From contig QPGO01000029.1 of assembly GCA_008632985.1 (NCBI GenBank), positions 446,874-510,873 on the forward strand: a DNA stretch of 64,000 nt, read 5' to 3'. Positions 17,794 through 64,000 of this stretch are shown here, piece by piece. How positions within the stretch are numbered: the stretch's first letter is position 1; every line of letters starts with the position of its first letter. Made by a program: the position numbers and the translations under genes. The notes beneath the pieces were generated by a model. It saw nothing but the letters and a program-made list of their open reading frames with translations. It was not told the origin of the DNA and searched no databases. The DNA comes from Psammoneis japonica (taxonomy: Eukaryota).

Positions 17794-19346
17794 GCACTCG
17801 ATTGATGCACGGCCAGTACAATAGTCGTGATACTTGCAGCACTAGCTAGGAGGGCCCTCTAGAGCTAGTAGCTACCTAGAAGAAGTATGACGTTGTAGAG
17901 AGTTTCGCCGTAGAGATGAAAATGGAGTGGGTAGCTAGTCACTGGTTCCAAACCATCCGAGCTGGTTGTTTACAAGTCTATGACAACATTACTAGACCTA
18001 CGCTGCCTTGTCCTTTATGTCTATTGCTGCAGGACTAAGAAACTGCATCATCAACAAGACGAACTGTACATAATGATAACGGCACTGTAGCTTACACCGT
18101 TTGTACAAACCACCAAATATGTATTCGCCATTACTTTGATTCAATGCAGAACAAGTTTATGCTAGAGATAGAAGTAGTAAATCTCTGGAGTTCTATCACC
18201 GGGGCGGAAACAATGAAGCTGGAGCTCAAAAAGGCGCACACTCTGAGATGCAACACATAGCAAAGGCTTGGAATCGGAAACAAGGCCGTGATAACGTAGA
18301 TTTTGGCAATTTCCCAAATTCTAACATAGCAAAAAAACCACCACCACCTCTCATTTTCATGCACCCACGCATGTCCTTCCCTCCCTCGATTACAACTCGG
18401 CATGCCGGTCTTGTGTCGGCCCTTACCGAGGATGGCTGACGACGAAAATGCAATTTTTCGGCATTTTGACCATGTCGTGTAACCCAAACACGCCTATGAA
18501 ACGGGTTATTTGACCCGCAAGGACAGCACCTTTGCCCATTTCAGTGCCATCGCTGAATCCGGCGTAACAAACTTAGTCGGAAACGACCCTGAGTTTACCA
18601 AGATGGGTCGAAAATGAAGGCGATATCCAAAAAGTGAGTATGCGTTGAATGCCTATGTTGTAAGCCTATTTTGGTGCATGGCGATGCGAGTTGCGAAATT
18701 GGCTGAAAGCAGGAGGGGTAAATATAAGGTGTCGCCATGGTTTCTCACGAAATGTTTCTGGACACGTTTCGTTTTTCAGTTTCGCGTTTCGCTCGCTTCT
18801 TCAGTTCTCAGCTTGAGATTTTTAGAGCTCGTGGCGACCTCGTACGTAAATTCCTACGCGATCTGAACTACTGGATTCGCCAACGCACGAAGCAAACACG
18901 ACTTGTCACTTTGCTTCTCTGCTTGATGGAATCCATGCAGTCTCGGTCAGTCATTTGGTGTGCACGGAAATGGACAGCTTACCGAGTTTCATTTTTGGCA
19001 TGCCAGCAGAAATTCAACATGTTTCTGCATGCTAAAGTTTTTCTCATGCGTGCGTGGCTGCGAACATCTCGAACTCTGCGAGCTCCAACACGAGAATGAC
19101 ACGAAGCACGAAGAGTTTGCGAAAGAGCGAATGGCATCGCTGACACACTGTGAATGCAAAGCAAAAGTGCCAAAACATTGTTGTTGCATAACATGCAGAT
19201 GGTTGGTCTGTCGACAGACAAAACAAATCGTCTTCAAAGCTGGTCAGAAGCTTCGACAGACTGCGCAGCTGTTTGCATGTTGTTGGGTCGCCTGCGTCGC
19301 CCACTTTGAATCATCACTCTCAAATGATTGCCACAGCCAACTCCCC

Positions 19347-19648
19347 CACCAACATTGCTGACAACTTTTCTGCCAAGACACTGTTCAATTCCACCAATGC
19401 TCTCTGCAGCAGAAGAGCAAATGACGAGACTTCCAGCTTGTCCCCAACAAGATGACAACGCCGCCGACTCGACAACTCTCCAGCATTCCCCCATTTCAGT
19501 CACAGACTTCACCAATGTCGCTGATGACTTCTGCACCAAGTTGCTGTTCAACTCCACCAATGCTCTCTGTGGCAGAAGAGCAAATGACAAGACTTCCAGC
19601 TCATCCAACAAGATGACAATGCCGCCGAGTCGACAACTCTCCAGCATT
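19347..19648 (+). repeat. Tandem duplication, ~140-bp unit with ~162-bp period
   Basis: caccaa..gctga..acttc..ccaccaatgctctctg..gcagaagagcaaatgac..acaactctccagcatt occurs at ~19347 and ~19510. Many of the differences are CA/TG or CG/CA/TG swaps. Confidence 0.85.
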
Positions 19649-20521
19649 TTTGTTTCAGTCACAAGTTTGTCATGTGACTGGTTGACATCCACAACCAGTG
19701 ATCTTTTTGGAAGTGTTGCTTGTTTGCATCCACAAAAAAGAGCCCTCTAAACTGCTGCTGCATGGAGAAGAGGACGACAAAGCAACCAGCCACAGTTCCT
19801 TGTCCACATGGAGCAACATTTTCAGAACAAGAGTCCTCCTTGGGCTCGGGCTGACTTCACTGTCAAGCCACCAATTTAAGCTCTGCAAAGTCATCCACAC
19901 TGGTTGTGTTTGTCATGACACTGCCAAAGTGACTTCCAATGTGGCCAGTGTGTCATTTGCGGTTCTTGCATCCACAGAAACACATTCAGAACAAGTGCTC
20001 CTTGGCCTCCAGCCAACTCCACCGTCATGCCACCACATTGAGAACTGCTGAGTCTTCCACACTGCATGCCGACATCACAATGCTGCCAAGGATGCTTCAA
20101 ATGGGGTCAATGCATTGTCACTGTTCCAACACCGACCATTGCATGTCATGTTGATGGGTCCAACGGCATCTTTTCATGTCAAAACAAAACCCCTGGCACT
20201 CGGTCACGACCGGCCATTGTCTTCAACCAATTGTCAGCAATGTTCTAAAACTCCATGGTGAGGGAGATGTGATGCGGCAAGGTCATGTCAGAGTGCAAAC
20301 AATGCCATTGCATGTCATCACCATTGTGAGCGCCGCATGCACGGTGGGTTGCCGTGCAAATTTGAATGAGCTGGTGGGCCCAACTGCCATTTCAGTGCAA
20401 TTGTGCACAGAAACTTGTGTGTGCAGATCCACACAACTTTGCACTGGCATGCCAAAAATGAACTGGGCAAGCTGTCCATTGTTTCATCGTCCACCTCACT
20501 GAAGTCTGCTCTGGCTGCTGG

Positions 20522-22323
20522 TGTCCAGTCTGCCAGGTTTTTTCCTCAATTGAGGCAGCAAAATCTGCCTCAATTGAGGCAGTCAAAATGCACCTCAGAC
20601 AGGAAATAACACGCGGTTTTGGCAAATGACACGAGAGATGACGATGTCAATTCCATTGCACAAAGCAGTTTCTGCAGTGACAATGAAGCCATTGCAACAT
20701 CCGCAACACCTTGCTTTGCATGCGCGGCGCGCTGCTTGCACCAAATTTGAATCTTGAGATCCACAAATTGGCCACAAACGTGGGACATGAAAATGGCCCA
20801 TCACTTTCATCACAACCCTTTGACAAGCTTTCAACCACTGCACCATCTTGCATTTAATGCCTGTCAACACATCATGTGATTGTCATTGTCAATTGTTGTG
20901 TTTTGGTGGCACAAATCAACACAAAGATTGGTGATCTTGGTTGTTTGTTGCGACAGCAATTCTGATGCTGCGATCGCAAAAAAAGCTCCTTGAAAGCTCC
21001 ACACACAATGCAGCAAGCTTCTCTTGCACAGAGAAGACATCCTGCAGCACATCCAGCCCACATTTGCCATCGTTGCAGACCCGAATTTTTCAGGTGCCGT
21101 TTTTTGTGTTTTTTGCTTGAACCCTCCTTTTCTCGACTGTCGCTTTGATTTCAAGACTTGGGCTGCCATGACAAGGTTGTCCTTGTTGTGTTTCATGATT
21201 TTGTCTGAGGGTGGGCTGTTGAGAGAGTCCCAGAGTTTGTAAAATGGTGGTTGCATCATCGTCAAAGTCCCAAAATTCACACATTTTTGGGGTGCGCTTG
21301 TTTGCATGCTGACAAGGTGAAGAAGAAAATGTGTGGTCGACGGCAAACAAAGAGCCCAGTCATTGCCCCAAGAGGTCCCAAAGCATGGAGAACAACACCC
21401 CAGTGTCACTTGGGGGCTGCCATTGCCCCAAGAGGTTTTAAAGCATGGAGAACAACATTCCAGTGTCACTTGGGGGCTGCAACAGTTTTAGCGATCTGGC
21501 AAGGGGGGTCAAAAACTCCCTCAATTGAGGTTTTTACCTCAATTGAGGTGCTTGGTGCCACAAATTTTGGGACTTTGACGATGATGCGACCGCCGTTTTA
21601 CAAATTCTGGGACTCTCTCAACAATCCACCTTTAAATGAAATCATGAAACACAACAAGAATGACCTTGTCACAGCAGCGCGAGTCTTGAAATCAAGGTGA
21701 CAGTCAAGAAAAGCAGGGCTCAAGTGCAAAACACAAAAAACAGCACCCAAAAAACTCGGGTCTGCAATGATGGCGAATGTGCACTGGATGCACAGCAGGT
21801 GTCTTCTCTGTGCAAGAGAAGCTCGCTGCATTGTGTGCGGAGCTCGAGCATTTTTTTTTGTCGCAGCATCAGAATTGCTGTCGCCACAAATGACTGAGAG
21901 ATCACCAATCTTTGTGTTGATTTGTGTCACCAAAACACAACAATCAACAACAACAAGCACATGACATGTCAACATGTGTTAAATGCGAGACGGCGCAGTG
22001 GCTGAAAGCTTGTCAAAGGGTTGTTGTGAATGTGATGGGGGCCATTTTTGCATCACATGTTTGTGGCCAATTTGTGGATCTCAAGATTCAAATTTGGCAC
22101 AAGCAAGCGCATTGCGCGCGCAAAGCAAGGTGAGGTGTTGTGAGCATTGCAGCAGCTTCATTGTCATTGCAGAGACTGTTTCGTGCAATGGAGTTGACGC
22201 CATCATCTCTCGTGTTGTTTGCCAAAACAGCGTGTCATTTTCTGTCTGCAGCATGTTTCGCCTGCCTCAATTGAGGTGGATTTTACCACCTCAATTGAGG
22301 AAAAAACCCGGTGGACTGGACAC
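20522..22323. repeat. Long inverted repeat (arms ~20522-21277 and ~21562-22323, spacer ~285 bp)
   Basis: The arms are diverged reverse complements (e.g. gtcaaagtcccaaaatt vs aattttgggactttgac; ccaaatttgaatcttgagatccacaaattggccacaaac vs gtttgtggccaatttgtggatctcaagattcaaatttgg). The spacer holds a 60-bp tandem pair at 21361-21480. Confidence 0.9.
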
Positions 22324-23699
22324 TCTGTGAGACTGGAGTGGGGCCTCATTGGTTGGTTGGTCGTTGGTCTTGTGATTTTTGCCCGGTCATGCCGGTCATC
22401 CATCTCTTGGGTGACACATCTGGACAGAATCTGTTGAAGAACACTCTGTCCTCCAGGGTCCATTTGGTTCTAAAAGGGTCTAAAATGGGGATGTTGAAAA
22501 TGGAACACAGATGTCCACAAAACACAGCTTTTTTGAACGCTTTTGTTGCAGTGGGAAACAACAGAGTCTCTTTTCTTTTTTTTCTCTTTTCTTCTCTCTT
22601 CTTTCCTTTTCTTTCCTTTTTCTCCTCTTCTTTCCCTTTTCAGTCTAAAATGCGCTCCAGTGACATGACAAAAACCGTCCATTTGAGGTGCTTTGTAGCA
22701 GGTGCAGCTCTCACATTGCACAGGCAAACAACACGCAGTCTGTCCTGCGTTCATTTCCAATCCCCAGCGCACTGATTGACAGACAGAATTGGTTCCTCCT
22801 CTTTCAGGTGGAACTCTCTAGATCGAAGTCTGAAACCAAAAGATTTTGGATTGCCGCCCTCGCCACTGTCAGAAAACAGAGCCATGACGATTGCCTGCAC
22901 CAATCATTTTGCTGCATTTTGCGCCGGGCGTTCGAACAATTGCAACACATGACGGTTGTTTCGGTGCACACTTTTGCGCGACCCACGCGACATGACCAAC
23001 ATGCGTCAGTGCGTGGTGCTGGTTGTTTTGCTTCTGACCGTTCTGTCTTCTGTGAGGTTTCATGAGGCTGTCTGTGTGCATTGATGTTGTCCAGTTGTGC
23101 GTGTTGATGTTGTCCAAGGCAAGCTGCGTTGGATTAAGTGAGTGTGGAAATGTACGAAATTTGCGCATTGTTGCAGTTTCTTTGCCAAATGGTTGGTCCT
23201 CATTTGTGGCCACACTCAATCCGCGGCGGCTCAAGTGAAAGTCCATGTGTGTGTGTTTTGCGCAGACGCGTTCCAGGTCTAGGTGGGACCTCGCACTACT
23301 GAACTGTGACATCGACAGTTTTTTGAGTCTCGTCGTATGTCGCGCACGTAGATTTCTACGTGATTTTTTCGACATTTTGTGTCATTTTACGGTACACTTA
23401 TTGAGCGATCCGTCCAACAACTTTTGACATTTTTTGTTACAGCGCGATTCTACAATGTCTTAAGAATCGCGTAGGGCAGGCGAAGTTGCAAAAACGTCGA
23501 GTGGTAAGAGGCATAATTGTACCACAAACTTGGCCGTTTATTTGATGTTGAAGATAAACATATCCATTAATTAAATTCTCGTACTACGGAGCTCGCACGT
23601 AGAATTCTACGGGCCCAATGTCACACGGAGTCCCACCTAGGGCTGGAACGCGTCCGCATTGATGCGGTTGTCTTTGCCAAATGGTTGTTTGTAATTTGC

Positions 23700-24170
23700 T
23701 CAATTCCATTCTTTCTGGCCACACTTCTTCTGAAGGGACTTTGCTTGCTCCTTCTCCTGCTCCGCCATCTCCTCCTCGGTGAAAAATCTCCCCGACCGCT
23801 GTGGAATCGCCGCTGCACATGCTGCCTTTAGCTCCTCCATGGTTGAACCATCCTTGGGCACGACCGTTGTTTCCACATGATGACTGTCCACTGTCGTGTT
23901 GTCTTGCACAAGTACAGAAGTGACATCAAAATTTCCCGAAGCAAGGTCAAACGCCGCTCTTGCTTCTTCCAAGGCAATCTCCTCTTCGTCTTCCTCACTC
24001 ATCAATGACTGAAGAAGTTCCGCATGTGTCTGCACCTTTTTCTTGTCCTCACCAGTTTTCTTTGGCTCGTCTGCCTTCTTTGTTTGTTGTTGCAAATCCA
24101 TGTTTTCTCTGTTGCTGCGTTTTCTGTGACGGTTGCGTTCGCGTTTCTTGGTTTGTTGGTTAAAATCCAT
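23700..24170 (-). CDS. Small charged hypothetical protein inside the Helitron block
   Basis: 156-aa ATG-initiated K/E/Q-rich ORF, no motif recognised. Confidence 0.35.
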   Translation of the reverse strand: MDFNQQTKKRERNRHRKRSNRENMDLQQQTKKADEPKKTGEDKKKVQTHAELLQSLMSEEDEEEIALEEARAAFDLASGNFDVTSVLVQDNTTVDSHHVETTVVPKDGSTMEELKAACAAAIPQRSGRFFTEEEMAEQEKEQAKSLQKKCGQKEWN

Positions 24171-24235
24171 TCGACGTTGTGTGGCGCATGTGCAGATTTC
24201 TGCGCAATGTGCTGATCTAATCGAAATGTTTTGTT

Positions 24236-27200
24236 TTACGAAATTTCCGCATTTTCACGGTTGGGGTCGCCAAATGGTTGTGCAGTGGTTGAGCATCCTA
24301 GTCCAATGTTTGCACACCACATCAACATTTCTGCGCACTGTTGCTGAGAAAAATGCGTGGCGCTTCTCTCCTTCATGAGTCTTGCCAAGGCTTCGCAGCC
24401 TTCTGGGACCTTGCATTTTCGCAGCTCCTTGCTCAGTGGCTTTCGCATGAACAGCCCTTCTCTGGTCTTTACTCTGGAGAGCACAACATGCACCCAATTC
24501 TGAGTGCAGCTCCAAGAGTGTGCAAACAACTGCGGGACTCCACTCCCTTGCAGTTTGTGCCCTGCAGTGGCATTGTTGATGACAAACGGCAGCTGGGTTG
24601 CCTTCAGTTGGAAAGTGTGCCTTTGTTTGTCGCCTTCTTCTAAAATTGGGCTGGGCTTGGCGATGCAAGCCCTGAAAGCATTTGTTTTTGGCTCAACTAA
24701 AAACTTCGCGGGGTCGATGCTTTTGTTGCAGTGTTCCAGTGCAACGTGGTCTGCCTGGCCAGCAAGTGCAGCAGGAATGCCAATGTTGTTGTCTAAAGTC
24801 ACCAGTCTTGGTTCCTGTCCTGGTTTGAGAACGACCTTGTCAACAGTGGCTTGCGTTCTGTTTGCTTGACCGTTTGCTGCATTTTCGTTGAAAGGTGTCA
24901 TGACTCTGCATCTTCTGCAAATTCGTAAGACTGGATCCATTCTTCCTGATTGCATGACAATGTCTCCTTCACCACAGTTGTTCCAGAAGCTGTTGCAAAC
25001 TGGAAATGGTTGGCAGAGTCTCGTGCCATTCTGCACCTGCAAGTCGTCACTGAAAATCAACATTGAGTCAAGGACGTCTCCATCTCTTCCATGCAGTGTC
25101 TCCACTCTTTTTTCAAACAGGCCAGTGTCAATTGCATCTCTGTCCTTATTTGCGTGCGTGGCACAGCGGAGGTCACTGGGCAGATCATCTTCGTTCTGAA
25201 CTGCTCGTTCGTTGATGTGCTCTATGTCGTCAACTGCAATCTCACCAGTGCGGAATCTCTCAAGCAGTTTTCCCCATGATGGATCGTCTTTAAACCTGTG
25301 TATACCACGAAGTTCTATGCAGCAGTTGATCCACTCGTGAAACTCGGGACACACATCTTTGTACAGTGGTTTCACTCCTTTTCCGACTGGTTCTAGTTGC
25401 CTGAGGTCACCTGCGAAAACAATGTTCACACCACCGTGCGGCTTGCTTGATTCGCTCTTCAATGCTGTTAAATTCTCATGGAGTTTTTCTAGTTCTCTCT
25501 TGCTTGCAAAAGAAATCTCGTCTACCACCAAAAGTCTCGTGTCTGACCATGCTTCAATTTGCTCTTCGGCCATTTGCTTTCTTCTCATGAGGCATGCAAC
25601 TCGGTGGATTGTGTCCCCTTTGAGAACAGTCACAGCCACTCCGGTCAGTGCAGTCACTCTGATTGTGCTTGTTGTGAACGGCTGCTCAATGAGCGAGCAG
25701 TGCTCTCTTCCGTGTTCCACGACGAGGTCCATTGTGGTTGATTTGCCACTTCCACCTGCACCATGTAAAAAACACACAAGTTGCAATGTTCTGCGTCTTT
25801 GCACTTCCATGAGTTTCTTCAATCGGTGAAGGTTTGTTGCGAACTCGTGTCTGCCATTTCTCCTGTTGAGTCCATTGCGTGACGTCTCATCTTGAAGAGT
25901 GTCTTGGCAGTGAGTGAGCACAAAGGTTCCTGCTAGAATTTCAAAGGCACGCTGCTGTTGCCCATCCAGTCTTGCTTTCCTGGCCCAGTCTATGATGCTT
26001 GCTGCAGATCCGTTTGCTTGACGTACATCGACGTGTTCTTCCAAACCTGTTGTGTCCTCAAACGACCTTCTTGTTCTTTGCGTTCTAGTTAGTGTCACTT
26101 GAACAATGTCGTCTCTTGACAGTGGTCTGCTGTGGATGTGTTGTTGCACTCCTTCATTCTGGTCTTCCTCGTCGGTGTCATCGCCGCCCTCTAGATTCTC
26201 AAAAAGTTGTCGTTCATCAACCTGGCTTTCCTCATTTGGTGGGTCAGTGTGCATGTCTGCCAAGCATTTGCAACCACCCATGTGTGAACCTTTCTGTCTT
26301 GCACGTTTGCCACTCAAATGCGCAGGAACAACTGCTTGGTCGCTCAACCCAATGTCATCGTCTTCTGGCTGCTCTGCCATTTCTTCCAAGAGTGCATCCA
26401 GTGGTTGACCCTGAATGGCGCCTGAAAGACCTTCTTCCTCATCACTTTCGCAACAGTCAAACGCAACGTCAGCAGGTCTAAATTGCTCCGTCTTTCTTTG
26501 CAGATCTTCAGATGCACTTTTGAGACGAAGGCAGTTGGACTCAGCATCCTGCAGGTTCTGCAAGAAGTTCAAGTTTTCCTCTGTGACAACACCGGCTGCT
26601 GCGGAGAGTTGGAATTCAAGCAGGCATGTGTGGGCCATTGGCTTGAGTTCCGTCATTGTTCTGCAAGGCGCAAACAAGGCCAATGCCAACTTGCAGCACA
26701 ATTCTTTGTCCAGTGTTGTTGGTTGCTGCGGATCTACAAGGCAACTGCCAAACTTGGCTGCATCAGGAAAATCACACTGAAGTGCTTTTGACAATCGCGG
26801 TTGCTGTCGCTGTCTGACACCTTGAAGAAACTTGTTCTTCATTGAATTGTGAGACGGGTGCCTGTGTGCTCTGTTGTCGAACATCATCATGCCGTGTTCG
26901 TTTTTCCTTGTGTTGCAAAGAACTTCGCACTCACTAAAAAATGCAAACGGACTGAGATTCTCCAGTGCTGTTGGATGACATGGGCAGTGCAAGGCCTGGC
27001 ATTGGAAGAATGGTGCATCGCCAAAATGGGCTACAGTCGCAGACACTTCGTCTCTTTCTAGTGTGCTGACAATGTCTTTCAAGGGGCACCATGCGGTCAA
27101 ATGAGATTCGATGAAACGGCTTCCGTTCCTTGTTGTGTAAGATGCAAGTGGTGGTCCAATGATGTTCGTCTTGTTGTGCAAGCAAGCACCCCATGTGAGA

Positions 27201-27274
27201 CGTCTGATTGCTTCCGATGCATCAGATGCATGTTTCCGTAATTCCGTCGCCATCCTGTTCGTAGTTCGAAGCAC
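24236..27274 (-). pseudogene. Helitron PIF1-family helicase region (hypermutated)
   Basis: LHGAGGSGKST (Walker A), LLVVDEISF (Walker B), GGVNIVFAGDLRQLEPV, HRFKDDPSWGKLLERFR, GHKLQG and WVHVVLSRVKT. Only ~2 Tyr in 1012 aa. Confidence 0.92.
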
Positions 27275-27280
27275 TTCGTC

Positions 27281-29516
27281 TTACGATGCAGTGTCATCTT
27301 TCTGGGCATCTTTTAGGATGTGCTCAATCGTGCATTGAGCAGACGGTCCAGGCATCAACAAAGCAATGTTTGTGTTGCATGTCAGCTTTGATCTGCTTGT
27401 TGCAGGGCACGACACGTTTTGAAAAGCATCGCACTTTCTCCTCTTCGGAACAACTTCCTTCACGCACCGATGCGCAAAAGTTCCATCCCAGCTGAACCAC
27501 TTTATCTGAGTGTCATCTGCATTCCTTGCCAAATTGTTTGGACACGAAGCAGCTGGTTGCCTGTGACGGCAGTCACCTGGTTTGAGCTCCTCTCGTTTCC
27601 TTTTCCTTGACAGCGCGTCCAGTTCCTCGTGTGGGGTTTTTTTGCGCATTTTACGTAACTCCACGCATTTGGGAAAACACGACTTCGTAACGTGCATGTG
27701 ATGGTTGTAAGCTGCGTCCGGTGTGTGTGCCTCTGTTGTCCCTTGCGGACCACTTCGCTGGTGTTGCACACACATTGCTTTTAGTCACTTTGCATGGTTG
27801 TCTGGACAGCGAGTCAGGCCAGGTGCACGGTGCCGTGACTGTAAAAAGCTTTCTACAAACTCGACGTTTGTCCAGCACTTGGTGCAGTGACGACAACAAG
27901 CAAACATTCCGTTCTTCGACTGCTGGCTGTCTTTGTGCCTCAGGTTTCTTGGCTGTTGGTCGTCTGCCACTTTTGGAGAGGTGCGACACATTTTTGGTGC
28001 TGTGCAGTCATGATCGAATGCTTCACGCAACGCGTTAGTGCTGAAGTCCTCGCTGCAGATTAATTCCGTGCTGCAGATCTTCTGAACTGTGTTGGCAAGG
28101 TGCTCAGCACCTTCGCATCGGATCTGTCTCATTGGCAAATGCAGTTTCTCTCTTGCATTGTTGATCGATGCGAACCAGATCTGCATGTGTCCGTGTGCTG
28201 TTGGACGTCCCTGCTCCTCAACTGCGGCTAAAAATGCGGCTGGCCTGCCAATGCAGAAGTTAAAGTTTTCTCTTGGTTGGTCAGTGCTCAGATCCCAACC
28301 CACTGCCTCTTCTGTTGCAATGTCAAACAAGCACTCGAATGCAAAGGCTGTTAGACCGGGAAACTTTAGACGCAGTTCATTACGTTGCTTGGCCCTGCCA
28401 GCAAGAATTTTGTCCATCAGTTGTGTCACGTCTTCGTTTGGGTCCAGGATGACACCCGAGTGCAGTTGCACAAGAAATGAATTTGCATCGTCTGGACTGA
28501 CGGTTAAGAAAATGCCACCCTGACCAAAATGATGCTGACAAGTTTTGGCATTTCTCCTCATTTTCTTTGCTGCTTCGTCACTGTGTGGCAGAGACGCAGA
28601 CACAACGTCGAGTGCACGCAAAAAGTGGTGCCCGAGTCCACAATCTCTTCTCTCGCCCAAGTTGCGATCACAAACAGCTCCATCCACATCGTCCACTGTT
28701 GGTTCGTTTGCAAACTGTGCAGCCTGATTCTTGTCCCTGACTTTCCACCCTGCGCTCTGTGGCATCCTTTGCTTCATTGTCAAGTTGCAGCACATTAACA
28801 CGAAGAGCTGCTCGTGGAAGTGAGGCTGGGAAATCCGTGCCAAGTGGTCGGCACAGTGTGCAAGGTTGGCGCCATCTGCAAGACTTCCATCTTTCTTCAT
28901 TCTCGTCTCATTGATTCCTCCTCTGCCAAAAGGAAACTGCAGCAGACACGCATCAATGAAGTTGTTGCCTTTGAAATCACTCGCAGATTCTTCAGACAAC
29001 TGTGCTTGCACCTCTAAATCAAATCCGTTGGCAGCAGCTTCGTGTGCAAGATCTTTGAAGCAGTCCAGGTTGCGCTGACCACCGGTCGCAGGAGACATGG
29101 TTCCATCAGGAAAGCAAACATGAAATGACTCTGAGGTCTCAACATTCGTGTTTTCTCCTTCTTCTTCGCTGGTGCCATCGACAAGCATGGGATTCCGCAG
29201 ATTGCGCCCAACTTCGTCCAGATTTGTCTGTTGGTGCACCCACTCTTGGTTGTGGTGCAACAGCCATTCCATCACCCTTGGCATGCAGTGCGTCCTAATT
29301 CTGTTCTTTGAACGCGCAAGTTGTCTTTGCTCCGGAGTCATCTTTCCAGTCATCAGCGCAATCACACTCTGATGTAAATTCAGTGCGTCGAAGTGCACAA
29401 CAGTTCTTACGATGCTTTGCATCTTGACTTTGCAGTGTGTCAGACTTCCCTGAAGCTTCTTCTGTTTGCCGCCAAGGCAACTGAAGCAGTGTCCGCATGT
29501 TTTCACTGGTGTGAGC
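27281..29516 (-). pseudogene. Helitron Rep (HUH/Y2 endonuclease) region (hypermutated)
   Basis: LQFPFGRGG, HFGQGGIFLTVSPDD, VEEQGRPTAHGHMQIW (HUH motif) and HMHVTKSCF. The expected YxxxYxxK motif reads CTIEHILK. No Tyr seen in the 573-aa ORF. Confidence 0.88.
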
Positions 29517-29792
29517 TGACAGGATTTGAACAGGATTTAGGTGCGCGCGAAGCATCGCGCGCTGTTTAGTTTACCGTGCACAGTTTTGTGTGCTTTAGTT
29601 CCGCGCGTTCACGCGCGATGTAGTTTGCTTTCGAGCCACAAGGCTCACAAGAATGACAACAGTGGCCCGATTGTACCGACTCACACGTCTTTCGGCTCCT
29701 GTGACGGTCTCTGAGCGGAGACTCATCTGCTATTTAGACAGCAGTAAGGAGTCATTGTTTGAATTCTTGCCATTTGCCTTCATTTTCTGTCA
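29517..29792 (+). repeat. 5' LTR
   Basis: Direct repeat of 36351-36626, with TG...CA ends and a 6-bp terminal inverted repeat. Confidence 0.97.
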
Positions 29793-37083: not shown

Positions 37084-37179
37084 TTTGATTTAAGCTGACA
37101 CTTTGACTCAACAAATTTCAAGAAGTCACTCAGCAAAAACAGTTGTTTTTTCAGTGCGATCACCGTGAAGCTGCGATCG

Positions 37180-46241: not shown

Positions 46242-46373
46242 TTTGTACCCTTCTGTGCAAGCTAGACTGCATACTTCAGTATTTAAAAACATAATCTCTA
46301 TAAGTTTCTAGATAACGAGTGAGACAAACATAATGCCCCAGGAATAACAGCCGTCGGTTCGTAGAGAGTGAGT

Positions 46374-53434: not shown

Positions 53435-53792
53435 AGATGCCAAGCCTGGCTCTCCAGAACTAGAGAGCGTGTAGGTAGAAAGATTACCAAGACTTTTACT
53501 CTTAGCCTGTTTTTTTTCCTTTAGAGTAGTTAAAGCCAGGGGACTCGCTTCATACCTTCCTTCCGATGAGTCGATTTAAAGGCCGGGAGGAGGAATGGGG
53601 CGGAATCGCTACTACAGCGAGAGGGCGCGGTGAGTTCCTGTGAACGCCAGCCTCTTCTACAATAATCACCTCTAGTTCTCGCTGATTACATGCGGCAGCA
53701 TTCGGAACAGATATCTTCCAACAGAACCAATCGAGAAGCACACTTCATAGTAACATCTACCGTTATTATCCAATTACACGACAGCTCACTGT

Positions 53793-55871
53793 CTAACGGT
53801 ACCTCACTGGCATGAAAGCCATGAATCGATCCAGTAGCTCAGGTTGATCTTGCAACAGTTCCACAAGCGATTCTTTTAAATTGGGGATCGAGCGATAACT
53901 CTTAATGCAAGACGCAATTTGAACCATAACATCCTGGCCCATCTTTTCCTTAACATCTAGCAGCAACTCCTTTGCGGAGACACGTCTCTCCTGGGTATCC
54001 CCAATCAGCTCCGATGTACTTGTCTTGGACCTGTGAAACAACATGGCACAACCATACAGGAGAATGTAAGAAAAGAATCAGAAGTGCGACCGAACAAGAA
54101 AACGACATTGCCGTACCAGTCACCAGTTTTCTTGTCGTCGCCACTTGTGCTTGCCCCGCTGCTCTTCTCAATACGACTGGGAGCAATGCTATCAAACTGC
54201 CTTCGATTTTCAATGCATTCCATCATGCGTACTGCCAGCTCCCGTTTCTGTTCCTTGTATCGGCGAAATTGGTCGGGTATCATGAACCGGTAGTGATAGT
54301 CAACGACATCCTTGAAGGTCTTTGTGCCCGCCATGCTTTGCTTCCCAATTTGCCTTAGTGAACCGGAATAACGCCGAAACCCAGTCTCAAACATTTCCTT
54401 CTCATGCGAGGTCCAGATCGTCAAGGCGTCTTGGGGGGACGCCTCCAAGGCCTCCAATGCCGCCTTTGTGTCGAAATTGTGCTTGACGAGCACCGACATA
54501 ACGACGTCCACCTTACACGCCCTTGTGAACTTTGCTTTACCTGTCAAAGAGGACTCAATGTCGTGCGGTGGATACGAAACATCTTTCGTAATGTCGTTTT
54601 GATCCAAATGTTTCCTCAGGATGCCCGACGCTTCTTCAAAGAAGACCTCCAATGAATCATCCTCTATCGCGTCTCTTTTCCACATCAACACCGGATTCCT
54701 CGTCGTTCGTGGCTGATCTGGATTACATGTCGGAACCGCAGCTTGAAACTCTGGTCCAACATGAATTCGACCCTCCGTAGTACTACCCTCTGTCTCCATT
54801 GGCCTATCATCCTCGCCCGATGAGCTAATGTCATCGTCGGAAGATATGGTATCGTTCGTTGGACTGCTACTGGCGCTGATCGGATCCTCAGCACGAATGG
54901 GAGAGAAAGTCGACCCACCACTCTTTTGGTGGCTCCCCATGTAGAGAGGCGAGCTCACAAAGTTGCTACGCTTGGGGCTGACAAGAGATCCGCTCTTGCC
55001 GTCTTGGTCAATGCGAGCCTTCTTTGGCGAAAGGTACTGCGTTGCCGAATCGCCAGCTGGACGCTTGCGCTGCATCGCCTTGGGAGTTCCTATCATGTTG
55101 GATGATGGCCATTGATCATTTTTTCCGCCGTAGGGCGTCAAGAAAACTTTTCCTAGATCGGATCCTTCCCCAAACGCAATGCTGTACCTACAAACAAAAG
55201 TTCCGTAGGGAAGCGAAGGTACCGGGTCCAAAGCATCATCTGCTACTGGTTTACGTTGCAAAACAGTGCACTTTCCGAGAATTGTAAGCACGTCGTTTTC
55301 ATCAGCTTGATTACTGAGGATGAGTTCTCGATTCGTCATGGACGAGAGCAACTGCTGACGCGTGACGGAGGTGCCTGAAAATGTGGTGGGCAGCTTGCTA
55401 ACATCGTCTTTCTGCGTTTGGGCGAGAAGCGAGGATTAAAGTGAGGGTACGCCCATTTTATATTATGAATCTTGTAAAAACCGAGAATGTGAATAACCTT
55501 ACCTTGAAGAACCATGTTGTTCGAATCCTCATGCACGCCTCTTCATCATCCGGGGATCCGGCTTTCGGATCATGCCACATGCGATCTACCCTCGCCACAA
55601 ATGCATCCACCGTTTCCCGTTGTTGTTGACGTGGAGAGTAGCAAATAATCTCGTCCGCAGTTCCGTAGAGCGACCGCTCTTTAGAGTCTCCTTCATCCCC
55701 ATTCTTCAATAAAACGCAATCTCCCACCCGCACAATCGACTTGATACCGTCTACTATCACTTCCAGCCCAAAGTGATCAAGGAGTCCATCGGACTTAGAA
55801 ACAACGCCTTTACCAATCCAAGAAAACGAAAGCTCGGTCCCTGACGAGGTAGTAACGCTACCAGGGGACAT
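53793..55871 (-). CDS. BAH + ELM2 + SANT chromatin co-repressor-like protein with a C-terminal PAH-like helical domain, multi-exon
   Basis: VRVGDCVLL..FVARVDRMW..IRTTWFFK (BAH), IHVGPEFQAAVP (ELM2), WTSHEKEMFETGFRRY..DVVDYHY (SANT) and ELLQDQPELLDRFMAFMP. Confidence 0.85.
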
Positions 55872-56229
55872 ATTCTATCAGTTTAGCTTCTAGTTGGATC
55901 CACCTAAAGCACTTCAGGAAGGTTTCTCTCTACCGTAGCGAGGTTATCACCGGTGTCATACCCAATACCCACAGCGGCACAGCGGCTCTTCGAGTCGGTA
56001 TTTCTCGTGGCACAAATTTGCGTAGTTTCTACACAAATTCCCCTCCGGGCCAATGCAACACGCCCGGACGACACAACTTAAAACTCCGGCTTGGGACAGG
56101 TCGACCGACGACACCCGGACGAGAACCGAGAACCCCTTCTTGCGACACACGGCCGCTCGACCGAACACTGTGCACCGTTTTCATCCATGAGGCATGTCTT
56201 GTTTTTGGTGCTTTATCCCGTACAATCAG

Positions 56230-57190
56230 GTGCCACCACTGGAAGCTCTAGTGCAAGGCATCGAGGAGGGAACCGCAGCAGCATCATGCGCAACCCCGAC
56301 CGCTCCCACAAAGATTGCACAGCAACAGCGGCGATGATGCTTCTCCCATCTTTGGGTCACTCCCATCATCACAGAGGGTTCAATCAGATGCCAGGGAAGA
56401 AACAAGAAATGACAGCCCACAGGGCGGAGCCAGGTGGGATCTACGAAGTGCTTCGACACCTGGCAGACCTCTGCGAACGGTGTGAGATCAGGAAAGGAAA
56501 CAAGGCAGTTGTGGGGTGTGGCTGTGACAATGGTCTGTGGACATGCTTCTACAACGACTTCAATGACCCAAAACAATGGAACCATGACTTGATGCAACCC
56601 ATGTGCAGAATGATCCAGACCCTGCCAATGCTTGCAGTGCCAGAGGAGGTGGACGGCCACAAAGACAAGGAAGCGCCGCTTCAAGAACTTGCTCCGATGG
56701 AACAACTGAACGTGGAAATGGACCTCCCAGCAAAGGTGCCTGGGAAGCACTTCACACAGAACTGGAGTTTAGATGCTGTGAAATGCTGGAACAACAAAGA
56801 TGGCACATGTGTCTGTGTGGTGGAGTTCAAACAACCTGGGATCATCAATGAATGATCGGACACATCTGCAGGCCCCCGGATGTGCAACACTGGATGGAAA
56901 AGCCAGGGTGTGAACCAGCACACCCTCCCACAGATTGGGAGGCACTTGGCAAAGCCATGCAAAGAGTGCCAACCTTTTGGAAACTCTGGCAACCCAAATG
57001 GGCAACCGGGTTTGCATCTGTCAATGGGGGCATGGAAAGGTGGAAGACTCTGCACACCTCAGCTTGCCCAAGATGTGGGGAACTGGAGGTGAATGTTGAA
57101 CATTTTCTTCATTGCCCAGCTTCATCAGCATTGTGGACAAAAAGATGGATGCGCTGGACACATGGTGAGTGTGGTGCATCAAAAAAATGA
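56230..57190 (+). mobile_element. 3' remnant of a non-LTR retrotransposon (RNase H plus CCHC zinc finger)
   Basis: MTAHRAEPGGIY..L..LC...GCDN and VDGHKD...EQLNVEMDLPAK (RNase H), followed by CPRCGELEVNVEHFLHCP. TpA-depleted. Confidence 0.75.
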
Positions 57191-57199
57191 GGCCACTGC

Positions 57200-60100
57200 C
57201 TGCCTTGCCAGGTGCTTGCTCAAAACCTTTGGAAATCTCTGCCAAGTGTGTTTTTAAACCAACCCAGGGGTGGCCAGAGCAGCCCATTGACACCTTGGAA
57301 AATTTGTGCTGAAGCTGCTGTTCCTGGCAGCTTGCATGCAACTGTCTGGGAAAATTTAGGATGCGGCAGTGCTGCAATTTGGGTGCAGGTGCAAGTGGCC
57401 ATCTGCTGACTTGGAGACTGTCAGTGCATTCATGGACTTGTTGTCTTTTCCTGCCAGCAGCAGACAAGCCAAGTTTCACCCCATTTGTGGGCTTTCGTTG
57501 AGTTTGCAGAGTTGTCTGGCCATTGCCAGAAGTCAAAAAGAACTTTCTGTGGATGGTGCCAGGAAGAAACTGGTGAGTTGGCACACACTGCTGGTGTGCA
57601 CAGAGCTGACATGACAGATTCTCAAACAAACAGAGTTGGGCAGCTCATCTGCTTTGCAGCTGCACTTTGCCAAGAAGCTTTGAGGAAAGCTTTTTGTTTG
57701 TCATGAGTGGAGAAGTTCACAAACACATGTGTGTGGAGCAATCATGCAGCTCACACAGCCAAGCATTTCTCAGCAATGAAGTGCACTTTTGCTGACTCAG
57801 AGATGGTCTTACAATGGTTGTCAACAGCAATCTTAGAAACTGCCCTCAAGCTCATCTCTGAACTCATCATGTGAGGCACTTGGCAGCTGGTGCTGTCTCT
57901 GTTTTTTTTTTTTACTGCCATGCTCCCCTGCAAGGGTGGCTTTCTTGCTGAGACAAGGAATCTCTCACACCTGTGTGCTGCTTTGGTTTCTTGCTGTTTC
58001 ACGTGCATGTGTCCCTTTCCAAATGATGATCTTGGAGCCATCTCCAGCCAAGTTTGGAGCTCTTTCATGTGAAGCAGCTTCTCTCCTTGCAGAATGGCAC
58101 CCCTCCTCAGATCCCAAGTGTGCTGGCATGGCTCATCTGCACTTGCCCCTTTTCCTCTTCTTTTTCAAGGGCATGGGTTGTTGGCACACCAGCAACCCTC
58201 TGACGTGACTGAGGTTGGTTGGGCAGCCCCTTTCAAGCATTGTCAACTGGAGCTTGGTGGCAAAAAATGGGGTTTGCAGATTGTGTGTTTGGGGCTCAGA
58301 GAAGATTGGCTCCTGTTTGTTTTTTGTTTCTGCACTCAAGCTGTCTCTCTTGTTGTTGCCACCAGCACAGCACAGTGCCAATTTCTGCACTGTGGTGTGT
58401 CTCCATCAAGGGGCTCATGGAACCACCAAATCCCCAGCTCTGTGACTTTGCACAGGTGTGCATTGCTGAGGCAAACCAAGGGTGGCACACATGTGAGTTC
58501 ATAGATTGGAAACCTGCAGAGGTGATTTTGGACATGTTTTGTGTGTGCTCTGATGTGTGCACAGTTCCAACCCAAGGAAAACCCTGTTTGATGCTGTGGT
58601 CACACTCATCAGTCAGAGCAAGCAACAACTCCAAAGTCAAGAAAGTCAACCCTCTGAACCCAAAAGTCAACCCACAGGACCTGAGCTTCCTGCTGGCAGA
58701 GTTTGTCTTGCACCTTGTGTGACCAGCTCCAACTTGAGCTGCAGAACATCAAGGTGAGCACCAACACAAAGGGGTGCCTTCCGCAGTGTTGCGGCAATTG
58801 CCAGTCTTTTGTTTGGGCTCACCCACCAGGACAACGTGCACTGAGGCCCACAAACCACCTTGAGCCATTTGCTCTCAAAATGCGCCAGGCCTGGCAAAGC
58901 AGCAACCCACCAAATTTGCTCAGCACAGCCCAGAAGGTCTCACAATCAGCCCAGCTGGTGGCTGGTTTGAGGCTGAAGTCATTGTGGGGAGTGCACCATG
59001 ATGGGTGGTTTTGCCAAAGGAAAAACTCTTTGTTTGCTTTGTTTCTTGGAATCATCTTTCTTGCCCTGCTTGGCTGCCAATCATTGACACCTTTGCCAGC
59101 TGACAAGGCTGTTCTTTTGTTGTTGTTGTTGTTGTTGTTGTTGCTGCTGCTGCTGTTGTTGTTGTTGTTGTTGTTGTTGCAACAAGAACACAACAAGCAG
59201 GTGGCCAAAAAGAGGTGATTGGGTCTGGAGCTCCAGCTCAACAAATGTGTTGAACTGACAAGCCAATGTCACCAAAAGGGAATCCTTTGAGGTTTCCTGT
59301 GCTGCTTCTTGTTGCACTTGCTTTGGTTCCCATGGCAGTCATGGTTTGTCTGCAAGCTCTTAACAAACTTTGATCTCAGTGCAACACAAAGGGTGCCTGC
59401 TGACACCACAATGCAACTTGTGTGAACCAGATGATTCACTCCAAAGAGTGAGATGCAAAAAGGTTGGTGAGATCAGTGATGGGTGCACATTTGTTTCCAA
59501 ATTGTCATCCCATCCACCATGTCAGGATCCAAAGCATCTTCTTTTCGGCTCAACAAATCTGCTTCTGGGTCTCTCACATTTCCCACTCATTCCAGATGCT
59601 CCAACAGGCTCCTGATGCTCGAAATGATGTTCCACTGTTCATGTGGTCCATGTCCATCAGACTCATTTTGGTCTTGTGGCTCACCAGTCTGCTCAAGACT
59701 CTTGGTGTCACCACTGCCACTTGCTTCAGGATTTTCAACATCCTGTGACTCACATTTGTGTGTGCTTGCCCTCATTGTTGTGGTCAATCATGTCATCCAA
59801 TGCATGTGCAGCTCTGTGTGGACTCTCCACAAAGTGCTCCACATGAGCACAACAACATTTCTCTTTCTTGTTCTTGTCTTCCATGTGCTCAAGCTGGTCC
59901 ATGACTCAACTGTTGATTGTCTCTGGAGTCAAGTCCAGATGCACCATGTCAGTGCAATGCCACCTCTTGAGGAGATGTGGCTGTCAGGTCTCAAAGCAAG
60001 AAAATGTTGCCAAGTTCCTGGCATCACAAACAACTCCTTCAGCATCCATCACAATTCTGCATCAATCTCGTGCATTGACAGGATCCAGCTCCTGGAACTT

Positions 60101-60950
60101 CAGGAGGGGACCACAAGTCCCATTCTTGCTCACACCAAAGGTGGTGGGAAATCTGATGTGCAGTTTCCAACATGACTCATTGATGTCAGTCTTGTCAAGG
60201 TGGAGCTGATCTTTTCCTCTTGCTCTGGCTGGCCCACCACTTGGGCTCTAAATGCTTTTCACCTGCTGGAGGTTGATCCTTCACACAGGTGCAGAAGTTG
60301 ATCTGCCTCTGGGAATCAGCTCCCAGGACTTGCCAAAAATCTTCAGTCTTGTGTGCCTTGGTGGCACGCTCCAGTGTTTGGGGTGCAATGCCAAGGACAG
60401 AGAACATTGGTGTGGCACCAGCAGTGAGACATTGTCTTGCACTTCATGACTGGCATCCATTTCCATCAAAGTGCCCACCAGTTTCTTCATTTTGTGGCAC
60501 CTCTGCAACCACAGGGCTCTCCATGGGCCCTTGTCTTCCCAATCTCCACACTGGGAAAACTGATTTGGATCCTTGACCCTCATCCTCTCACACAGTCTCT
60601 TGACTTCACATGCATCAGCAGCATTGCAATGAATGTGAGGACTGGGGTGGAATGAATTTCCCTGTGCATTGCTCTCATGCAATCCTTGGATGTGCTCCTC
60701 ATTGCACTGTGTCAATCTCTCATGTTCCTGCAGCTTCTCAAGGTTGTGGAACCTGCCCCAATGGTCCCACGGTTGCTGCTGTGTGTGGATCTCATCTCTG
60801 TCTCCCAACAGTTGTTGACCACCTTGCAGGATTGATCTAAAATCATGGTTGTCAATCATCTTTGTTGATTGACTGCAGCCACATGTTGTGGTTGACAATG
60901 AACCATTTGGTTTGGTGTGCCAGGGATCTGCCACCCACGTGTGTCAGAAT
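57200..60950 (-). mobile_element. Highly degenerate retroelement-like remnant (possibly DIRS-type RT near 58300-58700)
   Basis: Extreme TA and CG depletion. Weak RT-like trace SAGFQSMNSHVCHPWF...WGFGGSMSPL. Confidence 0.35.
59117..59180. repeat. (TTG)n/(CTG)n trinucleotide microsatellite
   Basis: A run of ttg with a central ctg block; reads as poly-Q or poly-N on the minus strand. Confidence 0.9.
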
Positions 60951-61019
60951 TCTTGTTTGATGTCACAAAGAACAAGACTCACACCTGTTGTGCTTGACGT
61001 CAACAGCCCAAGATGGCTT

Positions 61020-64000
61020 GTTTGAACTTTTGGAACTTCTTGCCTTGCAGCAGCTTGGTCATGAAGTCCCCCAGCATGTCATTGGCAGGAGAACACTGAA
61101 CTCTTAAGTTGCCCTTCTTTGTCTGATTGGCAACAAAGAAATGCCAAATGTTGAGTGCTTGCAATTGCTTGCCGGCACTCTTGTGCCATCAGCTTCCATT
61201 GGGGTGGTGGCACTCTTGTTGTCCTGGTGCAGAATGCTCTTGTCAATTGGATGCCCTTGGTGTTCCATGAACAGCTTGGTCCACCGTGTCACATTCATGG
61301 CATTGTCAACTCCAACAAGTTCAGCTTCTGTGCTGCTTTGGGTGTTGAGCTTCTGGTGCTTCAAAATGGCCTGCACTGCTCCACCACCCATTGTCACAAC
61401 TCCTCCAGTGTGACTCTTGAATCTTGGAGGAATGTGCTGCAAATGATGTGCCCACGTGCCACTTGACAACTCTGAGGTCCTTCGTGCTTGAGCTCTCACT
61501 TGTGTGCACAATGCAGTGATGGTGAGATGTGCATCCTTTTTGCCTCTCTTGGACAGGAACAGTCCCTTGGCCACCCATTTGTGGAAGGTCTGAGCATTTG
61601 CATGAGACAGTCTTGCACCACCAGTTTCAAATGTCTTCTCTCTGGCTGGCACCACAGCAGAGTCCATGCTCTTTGTCTTTTTTGGAAGCTGGTCAGTCAT
61701 CTTGCAATTGCAGTCTGCCATGTCCACTTTTGCTTTGTCCTTCTGGCTGAAGTCTGGGGTCACACTGAGACAGTCATGTCTCTCCCCTTGCACAGTTGCA
61801 ACTTCACCATTGCTGCCATGCACCTTGTTTGGCCAGCTCAGGAACTCTCATCATTTGCTTTTGGTGGGCTCTTGTGGCTTGACAACAGGTTGTCCACATG
61901 GAATTGAATGGCATGCTGCTTGCCATTTGACTGTGTGATTGATTGGCAATGGGACAGATTGCATGGGTTGAACTTAAACCCTGTCTTTTCCAAGTCTTTG
62001 CAGAGCTCATTGCACTGCAGTGTGGCCATGATTGACATGCCATGGATGGCTCTGACAACTTGGATGTAAAGGACTCTCTTGCCTTTCTCCAGGAACACAT
62101 GATGTCCATGCAGGTTGGGATCGATGCTCACTGGCATGTCCACTGACACTCCTGTGATCTTCATCACAATCCAGTCTTTGCCTTCTCCAGCATCTCAGTC
62201 TGCACAAATGCACCTGGAACATTGGTGCTCATTGCTCATTTTGTCATGTCCTTCATGGTTGTCAACAATTGCCATCATCAACAACATCCACTTGGGGGAT
62301 GCAGCAGACTGGCTGACTTGTCTTTGTCTGGCCATTCTTGGGTTGGTTTGCCCCATCACAGACCATCTGCTTTTTTGTGTGACCGTCTCATTTCTTGGCG
62401 CAAGGCCACCATGGCCTTGATCCTTTCAGTTGGAGCCATGTTCTTGACCAATGCTGGTGCAAAACACATGTTGTCATGCAGCTGTTTGACTTCTTTCTCT
62501 GAGGCATCATGCCCCTTCTGGCCAAATGCTTTGAGGCACACTCATGAAGCAAATGTTGCTGGGCAAAGCATGAGCCCTCTCCACTTCAGAGTCTGTCATC
62601 AACCTCACACATGAAGTGTGTGAGCACCATTGCTGTTCATGCATCACACTCTACATTGAACTTGGGTTGGGACTCAGGTTGGCATGGGAACAAAGGTGCA
62701 CTTGCAGGGATTCAATGACTTGTCCATGTGCAGGTTCACAGCACAGTGACTGCTTTTGGGAGAATCAACAAAACATGGTTACAGGCAGGTGCTGTTGACA
62801 CCAGGTGCTTCCAGGGCCATTGTGTTTGTCTTGTCATTCTCAATGGAAATGACAAGTTTCCCAAACTTGAGCTAAATGTGTTTGTTGCAGTCCAGGTTTC
62901 TTTGTTGCATGACAGTGTGTGAACTGCAGGTGTCAGAAATCCCTTCTTTTGCTGGTGTGCATGTTTGACATGATGACAGTGTTCTTCATTGTGGCTTGCT
63001 TGCACATCAGTTTGGGTGTCGTCATGTGTGGCATGTGGTGTGTGGTGGCTCAGGTTTGCTCCTTGATGGTCTGAATGCTTCACCAAACTTTGGGAACATG
63101 ATCCTTGGCATTCACAGAGATGAGCTCTAGATTTGCACAATTTGCAGCTTCTGCTGGCATGTCCTTGAACTTGGGATCACACTCAATGAAGTCAATCTTA
63201 AAGCAATGGGGCCATGTTGCACTGTTGGAGCATCACATTGTCCAAGGCTTTGCAAACATGTTCATGCTTCTTGGACTTAAGTGTCACACTCAATCAGGGC
63301 TTGATTGTCTTGCCAACCGTGTGCAGCATCAGTGCACTGCTGCATGCTTCCACAATGTCGGTCATGCCTTCTCTCTGCTTTTTGCATGTCTCAGGTGGCT
63401 GGCATGTCAATGATGTTGTTCCTCTCATGAGAATGCTGCACATGCTTGGTCTTGCCTTTGAGTGCATGCATTGGTGGATCCCACATCGCCACCATTCTGT
63501 CCACATCCTCAGGCAGGATGGGTGGGTTCTTCAACTGATTGGATCACAAAAGCAATTTGAAATCCCTTGCACTGGGTGTTCCAGCCTTGCTGCATGGTCT
63601 CAATGCTTCCTCAGCATTCACCACCTCTTGTTCAGCGCAGCCTTTCATGCTCTGTTTCACAGTTGAAGCAACAGCTCCCAATGCACTCCTGTGCTTTTCG
63701 TTGGTCTTTTTCACAACCTTCTTGTCCTTTGACAGCATGCTCACATGCAACTCATCTTCTTGGAGTTCTTTTGCATGGTTGAAGAATTGCTGGCTTGGTG
63801 CAAATGTGTGCAGTCCAATGCTGTTGACTTTGAACACTCTGACCTGTTTGCCAGCAGTCTTCTCATCCAGTGGACGGAACTCATCTGCCACTTGGTTGTT
63901 GCACACAATGCAGCACTTGCTCTTCACATCCTTGAGACTCAGGATGTTGGCTTTTGTGTTCTGCAATCTGAGCTCCTTGTCACCCCACACTGGCACAGTG
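61020..64000 (-). mobile_element. Degenerate copia pol (second family), running off the window end
   Basis: ANILSLKDV, AGTPSARDFK, KAFGQKG..KEVKQLHD, VLYIQVVRAIHGM, FHVDNLLSSH (RT), KSHTGG..QKLNTQSSTEAELVG, HQDNKSA and MLGDFMTK.LQG (RNase H). Confidence 0.88.

Follow-up and report, generated by a model that had tools for sequence, protein, structure and literature searches.

Why should the dinucleotide TA be almost missing from two long tracts of a genome and yet common in the genes that lie beside them? The question is raised by a 64,000-nucleotide stretch of the Psammoneis japonica genome (contig QPGO01000029.1, positions 446,874 to 510,873 of the forward strand), hereafter called the window, in which a copia-type long terminal repeat (LTR) retrotransposon, a Helitron, and further unclassified blocks lie among host genes. 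Nested DNA that we take for mobile elements makes up roughly half of the window. An original prediction, made from the letters of the window alone, attributed the loss of TA to a mutational process confined to transposons. Here, we examine this idea using composition counts that all come from the one 64-kb window and from the assembled sequence alone, together with comparisons with related elements and with published systems. We consider it likely that a process acting at the DNA level converted TpA to TpG or CpA on both strands, after insertion and within mobile elements, leaving host genes untouched. The mutational signature is the same as that measured in mutation-accumulation lines of the rhizarian alga Bigelowiella natans (Mettrop et al., 10.64898/2026.01.13.699255).

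TA depletion in the window

The original prediction described TA as nearly absent from about 18.9–44.2 kb and about 56.2–64 kb and as common in host genes, and the counts bear this out. The pooled host parts (1–18900 and 44200–56200; 30,901 bp) contain 1163 TA, an observed/expected ratio (o/e) of 0.575, whereas the pooled element parts (18950–23200, 23750–29500, 30250–44000, and 56250–64000; 31,504 bp) contain 229, an o/e of 0.125, well short of the roughly 1050 TA that the host ratio predicts (Poisson log10 p about -206). In 29 of the 64 1-kb windows, TA o/e is 0.25 or lower (range 0.01–0.25), and every one of these lies within 19–44 kb or 56–64 kb; the 1-kb windows over 1–19 kb and 44–56 kb have values of 0.32–0.74, save one CTAG-rich kilobase at 1.15. 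The estimate by eye of about 18 TA in 57001–64000 turned out to be the exact count (5, 1, 1, 2, 2, 4, and 3 in successive kilobases; total 18). All host genes recognised by Pfam lie in TA-normal DNA and both recognised elements in depleted DNA, as far as one window can tell.

The depletion is graded among blocks, whose boundaries are sharp at a resolution of 250 bp. It is deepest in the blocks that we call D (56.25–64 kb; TA o/e 0.04) and A (18.95–23.2 kb; 0.08), followed by 36.7–40.7 kb (0.15), the Helitron (0.17), the copia element (0.18), and 40.7–44 kb (0.22). TG and CA are over-represented in the depleted blocks (o/e 1.30–1.95, vs 1.08–1.16 in host DNA). CG is low too, with an o/e of 0.11 in block D, 0.52 in block A, and 0.68 in the Helitron, and is spared in the copia element (0.91); decay of CpG, which the original prediction had left out, adds to the surplus of TG and CA in blocks A and D. 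TC is not depleted in the window (o/e 1.01–1.15). Because AA/TT and AT are likewise undepleted in the blocks, there is no general drive from AT to GC. Block GC (0.47–0.58) is not lowered, and the triplets TAA and TAG are nearly absent from the blocks. When the cut-offs used in the B. natans preprint (TpA-poor, CpA+TpG-rich) are applied, 18 of the 64 1-kb windows fall within them, in runs at 19–22, 24–28, and 56–63 kb; the copia element does so on TA only.

Direction of change

The copia element is bounded by a perfect 5-bp target-site duplication, TGAGC (left copy 29512–29516, right copy 36627–36631, + strand), around two 276-bp LTRs (29517–29792 and 36351–36626, + strand; ends TG...CA). Its gag-pol open reading frame (ORF; 30955–36060, + strand; Pfam RVT_2) encodes 1701 amino acids and is open. 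Adjoining it on the - strand is the Helitron (23750–29516), with a helicase ORF at 24239–27280 and a Rep ORF at 27788–29536 (Pfam PIF1, AAA_30, and Helitron_like_N).

Both elements have lost most of their conserved tyrosines. In a comparison over 814 conserved columns with 60 homologues at 57–70 per cent identity, the copia protein retains 11 of 44 conserved tyrosines, the 33 lost ones having become 20 cysteines (TGY codons), six histidines (CAY), four phenylalanines, two glutamines, and one serine, whereas all other conserved residues taken together persist in 656 of 770 columns (85 per cent). Its tyrosine content is 0.76 per cent (median of 120 homologues 3.83 per cent, minimum 2.86 per cent), and its cysteine content is 3.23 per cent, vs 0.96 per cent in homologues. 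The Helitron ORFs contain 0.2 and 0.0 per cent tyrosine (median of 30 full-length homologues, 3.49 per cent), and one of 12 conserved tyrosines is kept, with seven now cysteine, three histidine, and one phenylalanine. The claim that conserved tyrosine codons read as TGY or CAY thus holds for 26 of the 33 lost in the copia element and 10 of the 11 lost in the Helitron. The further claim, that T:A was changed to C:G at TpA on both strands, agrees both with these codon outcomes and with the LTR differences described below.

By the genetic code, conversion of TA to TG or CA cannot create stop codons, apart from TAA to TGA, and it is for this reason that the 1701-amino-acid frame stays open in a ruined gene. 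The sole frame breaks noted in the copia element are near the C-terminus of pol, where a profile hidden Markov model (HMM) follows the protein past 36060 in two other frames to about 36.3 kb, implying two frameshifts (36000–36350).

The elements struck belong to two unrelated classes, one being an LTR retrotransposon and the other a DNA-only Helitron. Since Helitrons have no RNA intermediate, the change must act at the DNA level. At the former tyrosine codons of both elements taken together, cysteine outnumbers histidine by 27:9 (binomial p 0.004). Read as A to G, this ratio hints at T-A-Y as the preferred site, and a transcription-strand bias could also explain it. As to the strand of the attacked base, a comparison of tetranucleotide gains and losses was confounded by the higher GC of the copia element, and the repeat pairs described below gave eight polarised sites, too few to decide.

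Timing of conversion

The two LTRs of a retrotransposon are identical when the element inserts. Those of the copia element now differ at 12 positions in eight dinucleotides, all of them transitions, without indels. In four of the dinucleotides, the 5' LTR has TA where the 3' LTR has TG or CA; in the other four, CA stands against TG; there is no difference of any other kind. Each LTR retains 20 CG. The 5' copy is the less mutated, with nine TA left, and the 3' copy the more mutated, with five. Conversion therefore occurred after insertion.

Nine repeat pairs within the window (1420 bp) have 173 differing positions, comprising 37 double swaps of CA and TG, 10 differences of TA vs TG/CA, 31 of CG vs TG/CA, 36 other transitions, and 22 transversions. 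The many CA/TG swaps match independent, opposite-strand conversion of one ancestral TA (or CG) in two copies. The spectrum of the LTRs and repeat pairs shows a process that greatly outpaces background substitution and also outruns CpG decay; in the copia element, about 75 per cent of TA was lost while CG o/e was still 0.91.

Flanking bases

Flanking bases control conversion: TA is lost soonest after A or before T, and TTAA escapes. Measured against host DNA, the share of TA left is 0.98 for TTAA, 0.60 for CTAA/TTAG, 0.35 for CTAG, 0.30 for GTAA/TTAC, 0.17 for CTAC/GTAG, 0.13 for GTAC, 0.03–0.07 for ATAN/NTAT, and 0.00 for ATAT (none of about 140 expected). These values are fitted by one parameter per flank, with the base 5' of TA ranking A>>G>C>T. 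The sensitive contexts, A-TA and TA-T, account for 511 of the 1163 TA in host DNA vs 20 of 203 in depleted DNA, and for one of the nine TA left in the 5' LTR. When the five blocks are set against 77 unmutated copia loci, both ends of the flank order are shared and the middle classes differ by block.

Related elements and independent cases

Ordinary TA content in related copia elements argues that the depletion is not a trait of the family: across 79 metagenome loci, TA o/e is 0.31–1.07, and none goes down to 0.18. One of these loci, a fragment on a 2759-bp metagenome contig (L061), stands at 0.31. When the tyrosine positions of one normal homologue are scored, cysteine or histidine occupies 37 of 61 in the window copia, 14 of 35 in L061, and at most 10 per cent in the other 77 loci. 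L061 appears to have been mutated independently, because its cysteine/histidine sites mostly differ from those of the window copia, the two proteins being 58 per cent identical. A scan of viral contigs with the copia alignment returned no relative.

Among 93 further Helitron homologues, each with at least five conserved tyrosine columns, four have cysteine or histidine at 30 per cent or more of those columns (5/7, 4/7, 7/13, and 2/6). These four proteins (P0302, P0301, P0378, and P0343), with changes at 33–71 per cent of conserved tyrosine columns, belong with P0389, P0365, and P0333 to a set that is low in tyrosine (0.3–1.5 per cent) and has its sources in metagenome assemblies of ENA and one Logan assembly. 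Further cases could be sought simply by screening protein databases for counts of tyrosine replaced by cysteine or histidine.

Comparison with known systems

The original prediction named no described pathway with a TpA signature and asked for a check of the literature. The signature does have a precedent: TpA to TpG/CpA hypermutation has been measured in B. natans (10.64898/2026.01.13.699255). According to that preprint, 231 of 302 nuclear point mutations in the accumulation lines fell in an integrated giant virus and virophage, and 230 of these 231 were A to G or T to C, all 230 at TpA, at a rate in the hypermutable regions of about 6e-7 per site per generation (10.64898/2026.01.13.699255). 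The same source reports 124 TpA-poor, CpA+TpG-rich clusters in the genome, enrichment of reverse-transcriptase and DDE domains among TpA-poor coding sequences, and a proposal by its authors that an ADAT2-like adenine deaminase is responsible; the words ‘diatom’, ‘trinucleotide’, and ‘flanking’ are absent from its main text in the form available to us. In the literature that we found, this 2026 preprint on a rhizarian alga is the one report of the signature, and we found no account of it from diatoms and none that gives flank rules.

The two cases are alike in that the changes are restricted to T:A to C:G at TpA, with TpG or CpA as the product depending on the strand; in that local TpA-poor, CpA+TpG-rich clusters result; and in that foreign or mobile DNA is struck and host genes are spared (here, within one window). 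They differ in host, which is a rhizarian there and a diatom-like stramenopile here; in target, viral insertions there as opposed to a Helitron and a copia element here; and in depth, the o/e of the virus region being 0.45 and that of the present blocks much lower, at 0.04–0.22. The B. natans rate was measured directly and is described in the preprint as raised about 1000-fold and episodic, whereas the process in the window is known from sequence alone, the indirect sign of its rate being eight TA-type sites against no other difference between the 276-bp LTRs.

Fungal repeat-induced point mutation (RIP; Neurospora etc.) is likewise limited to transitions, dinucleotide-specific, two-stranded, sharp-edged, and confined to mobile or repeated DNA. 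RIP acts on CpA, which becomes TpA, with a rise in TA and AT content and new stop codons; it is set off by sequence duplication and requires a RID-type DNA methyltransferase. It targets highly homologous sequences with strong C to T mutation (10.64898/2026.01.13.699255, Discussion). The window is its opposite in direction, with TA destroyed, GC not lowered, and TAA and TAG nearly absent. RIP, as C to T change at CpA with TpA raised, was rejected as a candidate, TA being depleted and block GC standing at 0.47–0.58.

Decay of methylated CpG also yields TG and CA and is evident in blocks A (CG o/e 0.52) and D (0.11), but it consumes CG and not TA. In the diatom Phaeodactylum, every LTR retrotransposon tested was cytosine-methylated, and preliminary unpublished bisulfite data on the element Blackbeard suggest a CpG context (PMC2806351); the part of that paper available to us mentions neither hypermutation nor dinucleotides. 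As sole cause, methylated-CpG decay was rejected, since the loss of TA is deeper than that of CG and, in the copia element, took place without loss of CG.

Hypermutation of retroelements and viruses in animals by APOBEC3 and ADAR resembles the present case as an enzyme-driven, context-specific burst of transitions against genetic parasites. Both enzymes work on the parasite's cDNA or RNA while it replicates, whereas the targets here are an integrated Helitron and LTRs that were already integrated, and APOBEC makes C to T, not A to G. In dinoflagellates, TET/JBP homologues make 5-hydroxymethyluracil (5hmU), with a role in silencing of transposable elements, and thymine is replaced preferentially in TA and TC (PMC11572971). 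There, too, an enzyme alters a base at TpA within repeats, in another alga of the stramenopile–alveolate–rhizarian group. That change, however, is an epigenetic mark and no mutation, and it extends to TpC, which is undepleted here.

Mechanism and alternative explanations

The conversion would be the work of an enzyme directed to silenced or foreign DNA. We give an even chance to deamination of the adenine at T-A by a deaminase of the ADAT2/TadA type, producing inosine, which pairs with C. The tRNA substrates of ADAT2 and TadA have an invariant U before the edited A34, which fits adenine deamination. In the older blocks A and D, decay of methylated CpG would add to the excess of TG and CA.

Thymine oxidation is the chief competing chemistry. 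We think it unlikely that the enzyme is instead a TET/JBP-type dioxygenase, which would oxidise TpA thymine in silenced elements to 5hmU or 5-formyluracil; mispairing of the product with G would then give T to C. 5-Formyluracil does pair with G. The dinoflagellate mark in transposable elements, with its preference for TA and TC, speaks for such an enzyme (PMC11572971), but TC in the window is undepleted, at odds with that preference. Block C (see below) also contains a 504-amino-acid ORF (40853–42367, + strand) with two homologues only, an ‘unknown protein’ of Seminavis robusta and one ENA protein. Both of these contain GRNVFL..HTD.DF and, about 55 residues after HTD, PHCISSR, which together form an HxD...H...R pattern like that of 2-oxoglutarate (2OG)/Fe(II) dioxygenases, and in an Atlas look-up the rank 8 cluster for the ORF had PF12851 (Tet_JBP) on 16 per cent of its members (score 0.92). 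Against this, neither the ORF nor its two homologues match any Pfam family, Tet_JBP included, at E <= 10; a PDB profile search of the ORF gave one chance-level, unrelated match; a structure model of the homologue family reached a mean predicted local distance difference test value (pLDDT) of 31.5, with no usable fold; and the copy in the window has lost the HxD pattern, reading HRG in place of HTD. The ORF may represent an undescribed diatom dioxygenase family carried on a mobile element; even if it is a dioxygenase, it would be cargo of the element, itself inactivated. A still less probable extension is that TpA conversion belongs to an old pathway shared by stramenopiles, alveolates, and rhizarians, in which a TET/JBP-type enzyme, possibly of this ORF family, marks TpA thymine in silenced mobile DNA, much as 5hmU marks it in dinoflagellates, hypermutation in diatoms and Bigelowiella being a by-product or a deliberate outcome of the mark and not of adenine deamination.

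Other explanations would dispense with a DNA mutator. ADAR-like A to I editing of element transcripts, fixed by reverse transcription, would suit the TpA signature through the preference of ADAR for U before the edited A (10.64898/2026.01.13.699255, Discussion), and the sense-strand cysteine:histidine ratio of 27:9 points the same way. We regard it as barely tenable: the Helitron, without an RNA intermediate, is depleted as much as the copia element; the LTRs diverged after insertion and only at TA-type sites; TG and CA are enriched almost equally; and non-coding tandem and inverted repeats are also affected. To our knowledge, moreover, ADARs are confined to animals. It is just as hard to credit that no special mutator was at work and that the pattern arose from the intrinsic composition of the elements, from selection against TA, from GC-biased gene conversion, or from CpG decay by itself. 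TA is indeed under-represented everywhere, host DNA included (o/e 0.575), and blocks A and D do show CpG decay, but copia relatives have TA o/e of 0.31–1.07, conserved tyrosines were replaced and not recoded, AA/TT and AT are undepleted, and the copia element lost about three-quarters of its TA at a CG o/e of 0.91.

Several points weigh against post-insertion conversion by a DNA-directed enzyme as we read it. Adenine deamination and thymine oxidation give identical products. The evidence comes from a single window, whose blocks A and C are unclassified and presumed mobile from their context, and the supporting cases (L061 and the ENA proteins) come from metagenome sequences. The four CA/TG swaps between the LTRs, whose ancestral state is reconstructed, could in principle derive from CG instead of TA. 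Simple targeting of whole elements does not explain the copia leader (29793–30258, + strand), 466 bp that are wholly unmutated and retain 35 TA, of which 20 lie in sensitive contexts. Together with the less mutated 5' LTR adjacent to it, the unmutated leader points to some local control, whether chromatin, small RNAs, or a later insertion. Finally, a modified base at TpA could have been misread as C or G in the assembly, the true sequence still being TA. The matching sequencing runs all come from one sample (three of DNA type, with shares of 0.77, 0.16, and 0.01, and none of RNA), possibly the source of the assembly itself, and with the differing LTR sites read as TA, the copia element would seem very young and intact. 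Such an artefact nevertheless seems very improbable to us, as the LTR differences are clean transitions without indels, the depletion is graded among blocks in step with CpG decay, the same replacement of tyrosine by cysteine or histidine is found in metagenome contig L061 and in four ENA metagenome proteins, and, in B. natans, Illumina mutation-accumulation data in the preprint show that the mutations there are real (10.64898/2026.01.13.699255).

Element blocks and neighbouring DNA

The original prediction counted two copia families, a Helitron, and a long interspersed nuclear element (LINE) among the affected elements. One copia element (RVT_2) and the Helitron (Helitron_like_N, PIF1) stand; a second copia-type reverse transcriptase is suggested by a protein-language-model look-up only, and no LINE was found by Pfam in blocks A, C, and D, whose 35 read-through frames, nine of them in block A, gave no match of any kind at E <= 0.01. 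In the same blocks, an HMM built from the 60 copia homologues had no match, and a tblastn search of the window with the copia and Helitron proteins matched only those elements themselves. The proteins of blocks A, C, and D may have drifted beyond the reach of the models, which would possibly account for the lack of Pfam matches.

Block A (18950–23279) is unclassified and repeat-like, with large internal inverted repeats at 20521–22323. This core consists of four co-linear pairs of inverted-repeat arms (67–237 nt, 80–88 per cent complementary), arranged like a foldback element or like two head-to-head copies. A spacer of about 410 bp (23280–23692) separates block A from the Helitron and has near-normal TA (26, six of them in A-TA/TA-T context). 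At about 30128–30157, the copia leader has a palindrome centred on TATATA.

Block C (36632–44000; TA o/e 0.15–0.22) is likewise unclassified; it has 129-bp and 248-bp tandem repeats at 37.2–37.8 kb and three ORFs without Pfam match. The ORF at 42590–43234 (- strand), convergent with that at 40853–42367, has a weak SET-domain match (E 0.085), and the TA left in the 300 bp between the two is flank-resistant, one of 16 being in sensitive context. Block D (56250–64000) is the most decayed (TG/CA o/e 1.80/1.95) and continues past the end of the window. Its 118-amino-acid ORF at 61841–62194 (- strand) resembles copia-type reverse transcriptase in the look-up mentioned above, where RVT_2 clusters make up 17 of 30 matches at a score of 0.96; a Pfam search with this ORF gave no match at E <= 10. 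A (TTG)21 microsatellite lies inside block D at 59117–59179.

The host ORFs carry Pfam domains of the types WD40/Mcl1, PIP5K, Myb, ShK with 2OG oxygenase, MIOX, PLP decarboxylase, and BAH/ELM2. For PIP5K, the named best relatives are all diatoms (39–45 per cent identity), and the top match stands at 46 per cent, which makes the host a diatom or something closely related, and not Bigelowiella. Adjoining block A, the region 12732–17793 (+ strand), which may be host or element DNA, has normal TA and contains an ORF of 1227 amino acids without Pfam match, followed by one with a UvrD-like helicase C-terminus. The host intergenic DNA at 49000–49400, in the kilobase with TA o/e of 1.15, is CTAG-rich, of low complexity, locally repetitive, and unconverted. 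Searches of the window for tRNAs and with Rfam gave no match.

Implications

With this second lineage, the TpA signature, which would reflect a little-known mode of genome defence, is not peculiar to one species. It is here far more complete than in B. natans, and the DNA struck consists of ordinary transposons, among them a Helitron, which is DNA-only. New details are the flank rule, how fast the process runs relative to CpG decay, and the independent environmental cases. Damaged elements keep long ORFs, and so they seem ‘intact’ to annotation pipelines. The enzyme is constrained by several observations: ATA/TAT are hot and TTAA is immune, the rate is far above that of CpG decay, and an unmutated island lies inside a mutated element. 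As some diatoms can be cultured and genetically modified, the question of which enzyme is responsible is directly testable in this group.

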